A stretch of DNA of 64,000 nt from a bacterium (GCA_020444425.1 JAHLLB010000001.1:266938-330937); one strand, 5' to 3'. Positions 11,534 through 17,953 are shown, counted from the first letter of the stretch. Made by a program: numbers and translations. Notes: generated by a model not told the origin, from the sequence alone.

Positions 11534-14500
11534 TTATCTGACCAGCATCAGCTTCCGGATCTCGTGTGATTTACCCGGCACGAAAGCCCGCACGAAATAC
11601 AATCCGCTCGCCAACTGGGACGCATCAAAGGTGAAGCGGTGCGTTCCGGCGGAAACCGAACCGTTCGCCAGTTCCGCCACCTGCTGCCCGGCGATGTTGT
11701 AGACCGTCACGCTCAGCTCGGACGTCTCCGGCAGGTTGACGGTGATGGTCGTCGCGGCGTTGAACGGGTTCGGGTACACCGCGCTGATGGCGAATTCATG
11801 CGGGTGCTGGTTGACGGCGGCAACAGCTGCAATTTCCGTTGCTCCCTCACCGTTGGCAGCGAGGGTAATCAAATTTGCACCGTTCGAGGTCCACTCCCCC
11901 GCTCCCTGCACGGCTTCCCCGTTTCCGGCGATGACGGTGAACGGGAACGAGCCGGTTCCGGCGGCATGCTGCAGGTTCGGACCGGCGTTCAGGGTCCAGC
12001 GATAGTCCCCGGTTGGCGCGAAGGCCGGCACCTCCTGCGCGATGCCGTCCACGTTGATCTCCATCCCCGGTGTGAACAGGAACTGCACGCTGAACACCGG
12101 CCCGTACAGGTTGCCGTTGGGCAGGGTGGCCGTGGTCCAGACATAGCCCAGCGAGGGCTGTGTCGAGTTGACAGACAAGGTCAGATCGTAGTCAAACGAA
12201 TCGCCGCGCGGCACGATGGTCGGTGTGGATGTCGGGACCAGCTCGATCTGGATCGGATCGCTGGCGTGCGATTCGGACTGCGTCCACACCGTCAGCTGGT
12301 TCGTGATGGAGGCGGTTCCGGCGATATCGAGGCTGCCGTCCCCGTTGAGGTCGGACGCATACGCCCAGCTCGCGCCCTCGTAGCAGGTGTCCAGCCGGTA
12401 CTGGGCCCAGGTTGACCCGTCGCCGTCCACGTTCGCCCACCACGTGATGTCGTCAGCGTAGGTCGCTGAGCCATACAGGTCGAGGTCGCCATCGTTGTCA
12501 AGGTCGGCCACGTTGACACAGTTCGCGCCATCCAGCGCGATGTCCACGAATCCAGCGGTCCAGCTCGTTCCGGAACCGTCGGTGTTCTCCCACCACATCA
12601 CCTGATCGGCGAGGTTGAGCGTGCCGGCGACGTCGAGGTCGCCATCGTTGTCCAGGTCGCCCGCTACGACACCGAAAGCACCGTTAATTCCTGTGGCGAC
12701 GACGTGTTCGGTCCAGTTCAGGCCGGTGCCGGACGTGTTTTCCCACCAACTGATTTCATCCGCGAGATAGGCTGCAACGAGGACGTCCGCGTCGCCGTCG
12801 TTGTCCATGTCGGCGAGATCCAACGTGCGCGCGCCAGCGACGTTTACCGCGACGCTGTGTTCTGACCACGTGGAACCCGTTCCATTCACATTTTCCCACC
12901 ACGATACCCGTCCGGCGTCGTAGGCAACACCGGCGATATCGAGATCGCCATCTCCATCGATGTCCGCAACCTCGACCCCGGACGCGCCGTTGAACGAAGC
13001 ATCCACCACTCGCGTGATCCAGCCGGTACCGCTGCCGTTCATGTTCAACCAGCAGACAACCTGGTCACCCGAAGCCGCCGCGCCGATGACGTCCATATCG
13101 CCATCGTTGTCAATGTCTGCGGCGGTGACCGATTGCGGCCCGTCAAACTCGGTGTTTACCGGATGAGCGGACCAGTCCGATCCTGCGCCGTCCAGGTTTT
13201 CCCACCAGGTGATGTCGTCCGCTAAATTCGCGCAGGCGAGCAGGTCGTTGTCGCCGTCCCCGTCGATATCGGCGGCGTAGACGCAGGACGCGCGGCTGAA
13301 CGATTGCGTGACGGGCTGTGCCGTCCACTCCATCGGCTGGTCGGGCACGATATCCGGCTCGATGCCGCGCAGCACGAACTCCTCCAGCGGATCGTCGCTA
13401 CCCGGGATGGCGTCGAGGGCATACCACGTGCTCCACGGTCCGCCGAAGCCATAGTTGATGTGGATCTGGTTGATCGTGTTGCTGATGCGCCAGCCGTCGG
13501 TGACAATCGCGTGGCCGGTGATGTAGTGCCACATCGGGCGTTCAATGTTGATCTCAGCACACAGCATCGCGAACCAGTCCTCCTGGTTCTCAAAGTCGAT
13601 CCGGTACTCGAAATCCATCCCTTCTTTGTAATGGAAGAACTCCCGGAATGCGGTGCGGATGATGTCGACATTAGCTGTGGGAATGCCGGACCCGTCGAGA
13701 CCATAGTTCATTTCGAACGAGACACCGGTCTCATAGCACAACTCCGCGACGGCGGTCATTTCCTCGACGGTGTGTTGCCACGGCTGGCCGTAGGTTGGCA
13801 GGATATTATCCCAGTCGTATGGGTCGCTGAAATCTGCGCTTAGGGTCTGGTTCTCCCACTGATAGCTGTGTGACCCCTCGCCCGCCTGCGGCCATTGCCA
13901 GTAGTGCATGATCTGAGCCGCGGCGGTCGCCGCGCAGCCAACCCACGCGTATTCACGATCAATCACCGGGCAGAAGATGTTGAACGGCGGTCCCTGGTGC
14001 CAGAGACAGTCAAGCAGAACCTGACCGGGCGTGTACTCGTCCAGTTGATTCTCACCGAGCGACGAGATAAACGCCGTCGCGGACGGTTCGGTGAACACGT
14101 CCCACAACCGGCTGTAACGATCCACCGCCTCCATGTCGATGCCATCCCGTGCCATCGCATCACGATCCGGATACCGCTCGAGCACCTGTGCCTTCTGCCG
14201 CAGGATGGACAGCAGCCACGCGCCAGGGGATTCAGGATGGTCGAAGCTGAGCCTGCCGTGTTCGGCGTACGCTTTCACCGGTGGCAGCTCACGGAACGCC
14301 GGGATCAGCAGGTAGCCGTCCGGCTCTACCTCGACGTAGTAGCCGATGATCTCACCGTCCGCTTCCAGCATTCGTTCGAGCCGCACAGTGGCGTTCGCAC
14401 CGGCGTCCCATTCGCCCGTTGACGCCATAAACGTGACATGGTTCCGGGCGACACGTGTGGCTTGTTCCGGTGTGATGTTTCCGGCGAAACTCGAGCTGAA

Positions 14501-14971: not shown

Positions 14972-17953
14972 TCACCTCACCAGCATCAGCTTGCGGACCT
15001 GGTTCAGCTTTCCGGGCACCGTCGCGTTAACGAAGTACAGTCCGCTGGCGAACGGGGACGCGTCCCATGTGAACGCATGCAGTCCAGCTTCTCGCTGCCC
15101 ATGCGCCAACTCCACCACCTGCTGCCCGGCGATGTTGTACACCGTCAGGCTCAACTCAGACGCTTCCGGCAGGGAAACACTCAGCCGGGTGGTGGCGTTG
15201 AACGGGTTCGGGTAGGCCGAGCTGAGCGCATATTCACGGGGTAGCGTTTCGTCCGTGGCAATTTGCCTCTCGTCACCCTGAGTGACGGCGGAAAGCAGCG
15301 TTGCGCCGTTGCTGGCCCAGTCGTTGGCCCCGGCGGCATCCGTCCCGGTAGCGACGACGGTAAACGGGAAACTGTCCCACGCGACCGCGTTCTGCAGGTT
15401 CGGGCCGGCCTTGAAGTGCCACAGGTAGTCGCCGAGTGGCGCAAACATCGGTATCTCCTGCTGGATGCCGTCCACCGCGATGTTCAACCCCGGCGCAAAG
15501 AGGAACTGGACGCTGAACACGGGCCCGTACGACTGGCCATTCGGAAGCGTCGCCGTGGTCCAGACATAGCCGAACGCGGGTGCGGCGGTGTTAACGGTCA
15601 TCAGCAGGTCGTAGCTGAACATGCCGCCGCGCGGGACTTCCAGGCCGTAAGCTGACGGTGTCAAGTCAATCTCAATCGGTCCCGGTCCGTTGGGCGAACC
15701 GGACTGCAACCAGACCATGATCTGGTCGGCGTCGTACGCGGCGGCGGCAAGGTCGAGGTCGCCATCCACGTCCAGATCCGCAACATGCACGCACTGTGCT
15801 CCTCCGAACGACGACTCCACCCGATGCCGTACCCACTCAATGCCGAGAATTCCCGGCTGGTTTTCCCACCACGTCACGTCGTCCGCCAACATCGCCGTTC
15901 CGACCAGATCGAGGTCGCCATCGGCATCCACATCGGCAGCGAGTACGCTGGTGGCACCGTCGAAACTGTCATCGACCGTTTGCGCGATCCATGTGGAGCC
16001 GGTCCCGTCCACGTTTGCCCACCAGCGAATCTGGTCATCGCCGAATAACGCCGCGACGATGTCGTTGTCGCCGTCTCCGTCGATGTCGTCCGCGTAGACC
16101 GCGTACGCTCCATCCGCGCCGGTTTCGACCGTTTGACGGGTCCAGTTAAAGCCGTTTCCGTTGATGTTGTTCCACCATGTGATCTCGTTTTCGCCGTATG
16201 ACGCGGTGACCATGTCCTGGTCGCCATCACCGTCGATGTCTGCCGCGTACGCACCGCGCGGCGAGCCGTAGGACTCGGCGACGGTGTGACGGTCCCAAGA
16301 CAGCCCGTCGCCGTCCTCGTTCTCCCACCAGACGACTTCGTGGTCGTTGAAACTTGTCGCGTATACGTCTGTGTCGCCGTCGTCATCCATGTCCTGACCA
16401 CGGACAAAGATCGCGCCAAAGAAATCAGCTGAGATCATGTGTTCGGTCCATCCGCCGCCGGACCCGTCGTTTTCCCACCACGTGACATCATTGGCCACGA
16501 ATGCGGCGCCGAGCACATCCATGTCGCCGTCGCCATCGACATCTGCTGCTGAGACATCGCGGGCGCCGTTAAACGCAGACACTACCGTGTGTTCCGCCCA
16601 GACTGTGGCGTCACCATTCAGGTTTTCCAGCCAGACGATGCTGTCTTCGATGTAGCTGGACGCCAGCATGTCCTGATCGCCGTCGCCGTCCAGATCCGCG
16701 CTCCACACGCCCGACGCTGCGACATAGTCCTCGACAAGAAGTTGCGGCGCGTCCCACTGAACGGGTTCTTCACCCTGGATCAGCGGATAGATCTCACGGA
16801 TGGCGTATTGTTCGTTGGGATCGTCGCTGCCGGGAATAGCATCCAGCGCAAACCAGGCGTTGTTTGATCCACCCCAACCGTAATTGAAGTGGATGTAGTT
16901 CGTGGTGATTTCGACCCGCCAGCCGTCGCTGACAATGGCGTGCCCCTCGATACGGTAGATCAGCGGGCGTTCATGGTTCATTTCCTCCTGCAGCATCATG
17001 AACCAGTCGTTGGTGTCCGGGTAATTTGACCGGTATTGCACATTTGCGCTTTCACTGTAGCGGAAATAGGTTGGCAGCACCCAAGCGGCGTCTGCCGTGT
17101 GCGCGCCAGACCCGTTGATACCGTAATTCATCTCAAACGCGACACCGACTTCGTAACAGACCTCCGCGACGGCGTTGCTCTGCTCAGATGTATGCGTGCC
17201 GTTGTAGTTGTCGAGTACGTTCGCCCAGTCGTACTCGTCGCTGTAGTCGGCGTACAGCGTGATGTTGTTCCAGTTGTAGCTGTGTTCCCCCTCCCCGTAC
17301 GGCGGCCAGTCCCAGAAATTCATCACCTGCGCGGTCGCGGTCGCGACACAGCCGACGAGGCAATTCTCGTTGTTGATCACCGGGCAGTAGTTGCTGTACG
17401 GCTCGCTCTGGTGCCACGCAGAGGTCAGCATCGCGGTGCCGGGGGTGTAGTCGTCCAGCTGGTTCAGGGTGAGCTCGGTCAGGAAGGTTTGCGTGTCGGG
17501 TGTGGTGAATACATCCCACAGGTCAGCGTTGTGCGCAATCTCGGCGATGTCGATGCCGTCCGCCGCCATGTCGTCGAGGGTGCTGAAGCGGGCGAGCGTT
17601 TCGGCCTTGCCGGCGAGCACACCTTGCAGCAACGCGCCGAAACTCTCCGGGTGGTCGAAGCTGATTCGGCCTTGTTCGGCGTACGCCTTGACCGGCGGCA
17701 ATTCACGGAACGCCGGGACAAGCAGGTAGCCGTCCGGTGCGACCTCGAAGTAGTACCCGATCACCTCGTCGTTCTCGACCAGGGTTCGTTTCAGGTCGAT
17801 GGTCGCAGTTGCGGCACCGTCCCACGCATTGACCGACGCTTTGAACGCAATGAAATTCTCCGCGACGAGAGTGGCTTGTTGCTGATCGATGTTGCCCGCG
17901 AACGCGGATACCGTTACTAGACAGATCCCCAGGATGACGAGAGCGGTGCGCAT
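14972..17953 (-). CDS. Peptidase C10 (streptopain-like) paralog with propeptide-like domain, FG-GAP repeats and T9SS C-terminal sorting domain
   Basis: ORF 14972..18406. The likely start is ATG at 17953 ([34 protein letters not shown]). Same architecture as 11534..14545 ([18 protein letters not shown] Cys box; [10 protein letters not shown] His box; multiple DxDGDGD repeats). C-terminal [23 protein letters not shown]. Confidence 0.8.

Follow-up and report, generated by a model that had tools for sequence, protein, structure and literature searches.

Tandem genes for predicted streptopain-type (C10) proteases carrying an FG-GAP propeller and a predicted tail for type IX secretion in an uncultured bacterium

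The P1 and P2 genes and the domains of their products

The stretch of bacterial DNA analysed here (64,000 nt; GCA_020444425.1, JAHLLB010000001.1:266938-330937; hereafter the window) carries on its minus strand two tandem paralogous genes, P1 (11534..14545; 1003 aa from an ATG start) and P2 (14972..17953; 993 aa), whose products share one architecture: a putative Sec signal peptide, a likely SpeB-type prodomain, a streptopain-type (C10) cysteine protease domain, a seven-blade FG-GAP propeller, a β-sandwich and a C-terminal sorting domain (CTD) of a type IX secretion system (T9SS). An earlier note on this DNA, made from the sequence alone, had placed both genes at these coordinates and on this strand, and was exact to the base. 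The open frame of P2 reaches upstream to 18406, and the start was set at 17953, giving 993 aa, because the ATG at this position is preceded by a ribosome-binding site (GGGGGAG) and a typical signal peptide begins there. Along their whole length, P1 and P2 show 51% identity (BLASTP), with 18 scattered gap positions in a six-sequence alignment (16 by BLASTP). A Pro/Ser-rich insert that the earlier note had described ahead of the P1 CTD does not exist: Pro and Ser make up 6% of the linker in P1 and 11% in P2, and the largest indel within it is of four residues (EIAA).

Both proteins begin with what reads as a Sec signal peptide, with a positive n-region, a hydrophobic core and small residues ahead of the cut. 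These segments (P1: aa 1-22, MRRILFISASLLILVFSSSFAG, 14480..14545; P2: 17894-17953) were judged by direct reading, and that of P1 appears in the AlphaFold2 model described below as an N-terminal helix with a low predicted local distance difference test (pLDDT) value. The segment that follows (P1: aa 23-170, 14036..14479; P2: 17450-17893) resembles the prosegment of SpeB. Its match to Inhibitor_I69 (PF13734, aa ~20-111) scored 19.9 bits in P1 and 24.9 bits in P2, both slightly below the cut-off of 25, while a profile of 20 homologues aligned to residues 18-119 of the SpeB zymogen with 15.7 bits (independent E-value 0.048). The segment, with its motif ELPPVKAYS, is kept across the family. Because of this conservation, the alignment of the profile to the SpeB zymogen and a structural match to whole zymogen chains, the prodomain is likely to be homologous to a SpeB-type prosegment, and latency of both enzymes is predicted. 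The SpeB-type prodomain suggested in the earlier note is thus backed by profile and structure, and falls short at the level of the Pfam family.

The catalytic domain (P1: aa 171-395, 13361..14035; P2: 16790-17449) matched Peptidase_C10 (PF01640) with 151.6 bits in P1 and 178.1 bits in P2, against a cut-off of 26, and model positions 1-194 of 194 are covered. SpeB and interpain A were the sole matches in a sequence search of the PDB, with 3e-23 for the single sequence, and with 2e-53 (interpain A, the best match) and 4e-53 for a 20-sequence profile. Cys204 (13934-13936) and His345 (13511-13513) of P1, as well as Cys202 and His338 of P2, align to the GCVATA and GHAFV motifs of SpeB. The motifs that had been read from the DNA at these places (VGCAATA/VGCVATA, and GHAIVTDGWR with its P2 counterpart) were all recovered, as was the prodomain pair ITPEQATRVARNHV...GYYVEVEPDGYLLIP. 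P1 Gln184 (13994-13996; Gln182 in P2) belongs to a W-H-Q motif. In the alignment it stands opposite the Gln of YNQGNPYN in SpeB, and we take it to be the oxyanion-hole residue, equivalent to Gln19 of papain. The SpeB dyad is formed by Cys47 and His195 in mature numbering (PMC9455582), and C10 enzymes operate by such a dyad, a third residue being unnecessary (PMC10318531). In an alignment of 20 homologues the columns of Gln184, Cys204 and His345 are invariant, on which ground a reading of P1 and P2 as pseudo-proteases was rejected, and the dyad lies within the C10 fold. The active site is intact, as the earlier note had read for Cys and His, and P1 and P2 would be catalytically competent, papain-fold C10 cysteine proteases.

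Downstream of the protease domain lies the propeller (P1: aa 407-757, 12275..13327; P2: 15701-16756), which was delimited by motif spacing, AlphaFold2 strands and Foldseek. FG-GAP_3 (PF13517) scored 133.8 bits in P1 and 110.2 bits in P2 (cut-off 26.9), and FG-GAP (PF01839) 57.0 and 46.1 bits, respectively (cut-off 22.1). Where about seven repeats had been noticed, the count of DxDxDGxxD motifs is exactly seven in both P1 and P2, 50-52 residues apart and one in every blade, and the hairpin loops formed by these motifs are predicted to bind Ca2+. The propeller is followed by a β-sandwich (P1: aa 758-873, 11927..12274; P2: 15350-15700) that the earlier note had overlooked. It is defined by AlphaFold2 strands at aa 765-872 of P1 and, by BLASTP among the window proteins, phmmer and alignment, is common to P1, P2, two other proteins of the window (P4 and P5) and the database proteins P0030 and P0121; no Pfam family matched aa 758-873 of P1. 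An RGD triplet occurs in the P1 sandwich (aa 780-782, 12200-12208, VPRGDSF). Since RGG stands in its place both in P2 and in the orthologue P0002, it was dropped as a functional motif and is probably due to chance. At the extreme C-terminus, the type A sorting domain (P1: aa 923-1003, 11537..11779; P2: 14975-15217) matched TIGR04183 with 43.0 bits in P1 (aa 923-999 of 1003) and 38.3 bits in P2 (aa 914-990 of 993; cut-off 23), and Por_Secre_tail (PF18962) with 44.7 and 31.9 bits, respectively (cut-off 27), so that the T9SS tail noticed earlier holds for both proteins.

An AlphaFold2 model of P1, built from a 46-sequence alignment, has a mean pLDDT of 89.5 and a predicted TM-score (pTM) of 0.53; each domain is confident by itself, but how protease and propeller lie relative to each other is not reliably predicted. 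The order of the modelled domains is an α/β prodomain, the protease (pLDDT 90-97), the propeller, the β-sandwich, a two-helix linker and a seven-strand CTD; the propeller comprises 28 strands in seven four-stranded blades (aa 407-756, pLDDT 95-98) and is predicted to be closed. In a Foldseek comparison with the PDB the top match was the SpeB zymogen (1dki), with a TM-score of 0.73 across the whole 339-residue chain and 396 aligned columns; pro-interpain A (3bb7) matched with 0.79, and mature SpeB with 0.80 at a root-mean-square deviation (rmsd) of 2.2 Å. For the C10 fold of the predicted model, the TM-scores to SpeB and interpain A are 0.77-0.80 (rmsd 2.2-3.1 Å). The next ranks are occupied by seven-blade propellers, namely aldos-2-ulose dehydratase, integrin α chains and the EPTP domain of LGI1.

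Relatives and recurrence of the architecture

A homologue search in a collection of 5.8 billion proteins rendered few full-length relatives: P0002 (84% identical to P1), P0005 (83% to P2 and 52% to P1), and P0003 and P0004 (54-55%). P0002 and P0005 both come from a metagenome-assembled genome (MAG) of 4.54 Mb, CAXXKJ01, whose locus L001 keeps the gene order of the window, with the tandem pair, the subsequent propeller genes and a divergent operon of the methylmalonyl-CoA/oxaloacetate decarboxylase type. The duplication that produced P1 and P2 is therefore older than the split of both organisms. The lineages of P0003 and P0004 have one C10-propeller copy, also adjoining genes that combine FG-GAP with a CTD, and related loci carry in addition glycoside hydrolases with T9SS tails. 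In the two more distant lineages (L077, 13122-13505; L078, 13037-13414), a conserved gene for a hydrophobic membrane protein of 125-127 aa lies 13-19 nt downstream of the C10-propeller gene. This protein has no Pfam match. A downstream inhibitor gene, as in spi/speB or Bacteroides Bfi, was considered and rejected, the candidate being this membrane protein, which both the window and L001 lack.

CAXXKJ01 and a JGI genome encode 5 and 8 more paralogues, respectively, composed of propeller, sandwich and CTD and covering ~60% of P1, and those of CAXXKJ01 are dispersed over at least four other loci, distant from the protease genes. CAXXKJ01 also encodes P0030, in which the prodomain and C10 domain are joined to the sandwich and the CTD without a propeller. 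On account of these many paralogues and of P0030, P1 and P2 look like the outcome of module shuffling, in which a C10 protease was combined with the abundant secreted propeller family of the lineage. The nearest relatives that combine propeller and CTD, which give a hint at the affiliation, belong to MAGs of Aegiribacteria, Sabulitectum and Fermentibacteria and to the 4.54-Mb MAG CAXXKJ01. The best matches of valyl-tRNA synthetase are only 44-52% identical and fall in groups as different as Rhodothermales, Ignavibacteriales and Spirochaetes.

An exhaustive HMMER search of 1.84 billion cluster representatives rendered 15,778 C10 relatives at E <= 1e-3 and 11,085 at E <= 1e-10, and domain content was examined among the nearest 150. 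Many of these 150 are multidomain T9SS cargo proteins of 900-2200 aa with the prodomain-C10 unit at the N-terminus, and a recognisably P1-like CTD is present in 52. FG-GAP_3 was found by Pfam in P0221, P0222, P0224, P0264 and P0206, plus 7 of 12 further candidates, so that, P0002 included, at least 13 of the nearest 150 C10 cluster representatives carry FG-GAP repeats, several of them with a T9SS tail. Other C10 heads are joined to beta-helix, HYR, cohesin, dockerin, TSP3, LRR or PKD modules. P0222 is UCE25117.1 in NCBI nr, a 'C10 family peptidase' of a Zixibacteria MAG, and the JGI annotation of P0003 gives exactly the domain string of P1 and P2.

The earlier note had considered the composite unusual, a view that these counts and the Zixibacteria example do not sustain. 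A word-indexed search with the N-terminal 400 aa, which gave 73 C10 proteins and none with FG-GAP, had likewise pointed to a rare architecture and was overturned by the exhaustive search; on its own, such a search is unreliable for judging rarity, having missed P0001-P0006, with the query itself and the four full-length homologues among them, and all other fusions of C10 and FG-GAP. The literature searched contained no paper joining T9SS to FG-GAP, bacterial C10 or streptopain to FG-GAP, or Fermentibacteria to type IX secretion. The architecture of P1 and P2 is hence recurrent in uncultured bacteria and experimentally uncharacterised, within a well-known protease family and a well-known secretion system.

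The gene row and its surroundings

P2 and P1 stand at the head of a row of five adjacent co-directional genes for T9SS cargo, a row that the earlier note had missed. P3 (9126..11471, minus strand; 781 aa) encodes an FG-GAP propeller, two FN3-like repeats, an unassigned domain and a T9SS CTD, and is probably co-transcribed with P1, since only 62 nt separate its start from the P1 stop. P4 (6802..8637, minus strand; 611 aa) consists of propeller, β-sandwich and CTD, that is, of P1 or P2 minus the protease, and is 34-37% identical to P1 and P2 from aa ~406 to their ends. P5 (4866..6527, minus strand; 553 aa) joins FN3-like sequence and an unassigned domain to a sandwich as in P1 and P2 and a CTD. 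A segment of ~135 aa is 34% identical between P3 (aa 461-595) and P5 (aa 92-239); it matched no Pfam or NCBIfam family and spans FN3-like sequence (EF.EYR[VI][YF]R...YDY) and the start of the unassigned LxEDFxD...W domain. The CTD-coding ends of P1 (11537-11772) and P3 (9129-9365) are 83% identical in DNA over 236 nt, compared with about 68-70% between P1 and P2, which suggests gene conversion or a recent exchange of the sorting domain.

Scans for sigma-70 promoters and terminators rendered sites no more numerous than in shuffled sequence, the only terminators that look real being hairpins 3' of P5 (4799-4773) and of P4 (6767-6744). The intergenic region between P2 and P1 contains, at 14733-14849 and 14895-14915, a 32-nt element with the core GTCATCCTGAACGAAGTGAAGGATC in three direct copies, with one 21-nt inverted partner 49 nt off. 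The element is absent elsewhere in the window, where 0 occurrences would be expected by chance, and its repeats give rise to a spurious open reading frame (ORF) at 14509-14829 with a repeated 'HFVQDD'. It looks like an intergenic repeat of the repetitive extragenic palindrome (REP) or miniature inverted-repeat transposable element (MITE) kind.

Divergent from P2, a gene set of decarboxylase type occupies 17889-23552 on the plus strand. The set, whose order recurs in L001, comprises a carboxyltransferase (638 bits with PF01039), a small ORF for a membrane protein, a biotinyl-carrier-like ORF (20467-20937, motif EAMKM), an unassigned 432-aa ORF and a Na+-pump subunit of OAD_beta type (515 bits). 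The carboxyltransferase ORF, which starts at 17889, is probably overlong, a start near MASIEDKL being likelier. Farther away, a 1257-aa protein (40266-44039, minus strand) combines Peptidase_MA_2 (aa 150-352) with PD40/TolB-like β-propeller repeats (aa ~440-640) and is a second protease-propeller fusion in the window, unrelated to P1 and P2; weak BamA/TamL-like matches in its C-terminal region (aa ~897-1238) make an outer-membrane barrel anchor possible. A 444-aa ORF (59449-60783, plus strand) matched the NTP/NDP exchange transporter family TIGR00769 at 83 bits, below the cut-off of 387, and is thus ATP/ADP-translocase-like, in an apparently free-living bacterium of the Fibrobacteres-Chlorobi-Bacteroidetes (FCB) type.

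Proposed role of the propeller and comparison with known systems

We consider it likely that P1 and P2 constitute a pair of latent C10 proteases exported by T9SS, in which the propeller acts as an exosite for binding or targeting, or else as a display scaffold. Both proteins would be synthesised as zymogens with an N-terminal SpeB-like prodomain and would cross the inner membrane by Sec and the outer membrane by T9SS, which would recognise the type A CTD. The CTD would then be cleaved off, the protein remaining attached to the surface or being released, and the prodomain may be removed autocatalytically, by analogy with SpeB and interpain A. Sec export, CTD-directed passage through T9SS, CTD removal and autocleavage of the prodomain are the steps established for T9SS cargo and C10 zymogens (PMC11969387, PMC10202324, PMC11285876). 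CTDs are found on the five adjacent genes of the window and on many genes of related loci. The propeller and the immunoglobulin (Ig)-like sandwich would have been borrowed from the abundant secreted family of the lineage that combines propeller, sandwich and CTD, and the propeller, presumably stabilised by calcium, could fix where the protease acts. Anchoring to the surface and targeting of a ligand by the propeller, as put forward in the earlier note, are plausible.

A comparison of the two paralogues by domain showed that the propeller, with 45% identity, is the least conserved of the folded domains (54-61% for prodomain, protease and sandwich), and between orthologues it is 82-88% identical. 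The loops were classed as top or bottom by analogy with integrin propellers, whose bottom face carries the calcium hairpins. Under this assignment, the presumed top-face loops 2-3 and 4-1 are 18% and 29% identical between paralogues and 71-86% between orthologues. P1 and P2 would accordingly be most diverged on the presumed ligand face, a pattern that is compatible with, and weakly supports, a divergence of specificity between the two propellers. A more specific proposal, that the propellers are Ca2+-dependent lectin-like or protein-binding exosites and that P1 and P2 have split their target specificities through the top-face loops, is tentative, and we think it rather unlikely as it stands. 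Several points weigh against assigning an exported, propeller-guided protease to this locus. The two loop classes comprise just 28 and 34 residues, loops outpace strands in divergence anyway, the assignment of top and bottom is an analogy with integrin α subunits, and none of the results points to a ligand. Furthermore, the Foldseek matches of the modelled propeller are to generic seven-blade folds, the placement of protease relative to propeller in the model is the unreliable part, the Pfam score of the prodomain falls just short of its cut-off, and no T9SS machinery genes were found among the large ORFs of the window, the remaining genome not having been searched.

The propeller could instead be a passive spacer, or a folding or secretion scaffold, that holds the protease off the cell surface and has no ligand, having been inherited with the cassette of propeller, sandwich and CTD that is common in the lineage. 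This cassette, without a protease, is present in many paralogues, C10 heads are found on many unrelated modules, as would be the case for interchangeable stalks, and P0030 does without the propeller altogether. A 350-residue propeller of calcium type would, however, be costly as a mere spacer, and the conservation in orthologues of the presumed top-face loops that differ most between the paralogues suggests constraint, so that we find this explanation doubtful, although it deserves more weight than those that follow. That P1 and P2 serve only to mature the co-encoded surface proteins with propellers or FN3-like repeats (P3-P5 and their paralogues), and are not nutritional or offensive enzymes, would fit the row of five co-directional cargo genes, the short distance from P1 to P3 and the single C10-propeller gene that follows genes combining FG-GAP with a CTD in two more distant lineages. 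We consider this role improbable: the clustering may be due to nothing but tandem duplication and domain shuffling, and in the related genome CAXXKJ01 paralogues with propeller and CTD are dispersed over at least four other loci, distant from the protease genes. Least probable is that the propeller is itself enzymatic, for instance a polysaccharide lyase or dehydratase-like, and that P1 and P2 are bifunctional degradative enzymes: the glycoside hydrolases with T9SS tails at related loci, a Foldseek match to aldos-2-ulose dehydratase (4a7y, E 9e-13) and an RGI_lyase β-sheet match in P3 (22.7 bits, below the cut-off of 27.8) could be adduced for it, but the 4a7y alignment (TM-score 0.32-0.36, rmsd 22 Å, 848 columns) reflects only a generic likeness of propeller plus sandwich, no lyase or dehydratase family of Pfam or NCBIfam is above threshold in P1 or P2, and no catalytic motif was identified.

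Nearly all that is known of C10 proteases concerns virulence factors from a handful of pathogens (SpeB, interpain A, PrtT). Our searches show that uncultured environmental bacteria contain a very large C10 family, whose members commonly form the heads of long T9SS cargo proteins of modular build. Should the propeller indeed act as an exosite, P1 and P2 would represent a class of streptopain-type proteases, recurrent and uncharacterised, that are 'propeller-targeted' and occur in uncultured bacteria of the FCB group; among the 150 nearest C10 clusters, at least 13 would belong to it. Such proteins would be a natural case of a papain-fold protease directed to its substrates by a separate module, and they would offer a handle on the attack of proteinaceous or glycoprotein polymers by Fermentibacteria-like bacteria, Zixibacteria and others. 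As regards the locus itself, the outcome is the correct annotation of a recurrent architecture and not a new kind of system.

Among characterised proteases, interpain A of Prevotella intermedia as well as PrtT and periodontain of Porphyromonas gingivalis are T9SS-secreted C10 proteases, and a close relative of P0030 is automatically annotated as 'thiol protease/hemagglutinin PrtT'. Interpain A has, like P1 and P2, an N-terminal prodomain and a C10 domain with a Cys/His dyad. The match of its solved chains is limited to the prodomain and the catalytic portion of P1, with ~27% identity in the catalytic domain, and the host of P1 and P2 is, unlike that of interpain A, an uncultured lineage of FCB type outside the Bacteroidota. 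We know of no FG-GAP propeller described in a characterised T9SS-secreted C10 protease. Interpain A activity is T9SS-dependent according to a study cited in PMC11969387, and the T9SS is reported to be restricted to the FCB superphylum (PMC11969387). SpeB of Streptococcus pyogenes, the founder of the C10 family, shares the positions of the catalytic Gln, Cys and His with P1 and P2, but it is a Gram-positive secreted enzyme of ~40 kDa without a C-terminal extension; in turn, P1 and P2 lack the glycine-rich C-terminal loop of SpeB and have Tyr/Phe in place of the Trp residues of its NWGWGG sequence.

The closest counterparts in architecture are the fusions P0222 (UCE25117.1), P0221, P0224, P0264, P0206 and P0214, none of them characterised, which as in P1 and P2 combine Inhibitor_I69 and Peptidase_C10 with at least six FG-GAP_3 repeats and a CTD of Por_Secre_tail or FlgD_ig type. 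They differ in that identity in the N-terminal 400 residues is only 36-40%, the pre-CTD sandwich is absent, and extra or different modules occur, such as a Big_5 domain that separates protease from propeller, UnbV_ASPIC, CarboxypepD_reg, dockerin and up to 18 FG-GAP repeats. The gingipain RgpB (C25) resembles P1 and P2 in its layout, with an N-terminal prodomain, the protease and an Ig-like β-sandwich directly before the CTD. The fold of the T9SS CTD is a 3+4 β-sandwich (PMC11285876). The catalytic fold of RgpB is caspase-like and unrelated to C10, and the protein has no propeller. In integrin αV, α5 and αIIb, found by Foldseek, Ig-like domains come after a seven-blade FG-GAP propeller with DxDxDGxxD loops, as in P1 and P2. 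Their calcium loops are present in only three or four blades, whereas P1 and P2 have them in all seven; sequence identity to integrin α chains is 9-12%, and P1 and P2 have no β-subunit partner. The coupling of a catalytic domain to an FG-GAP propeller is found as well in the eukaryotic glycosylphosphatidylinositol (GPI)-specific phospholipase D.

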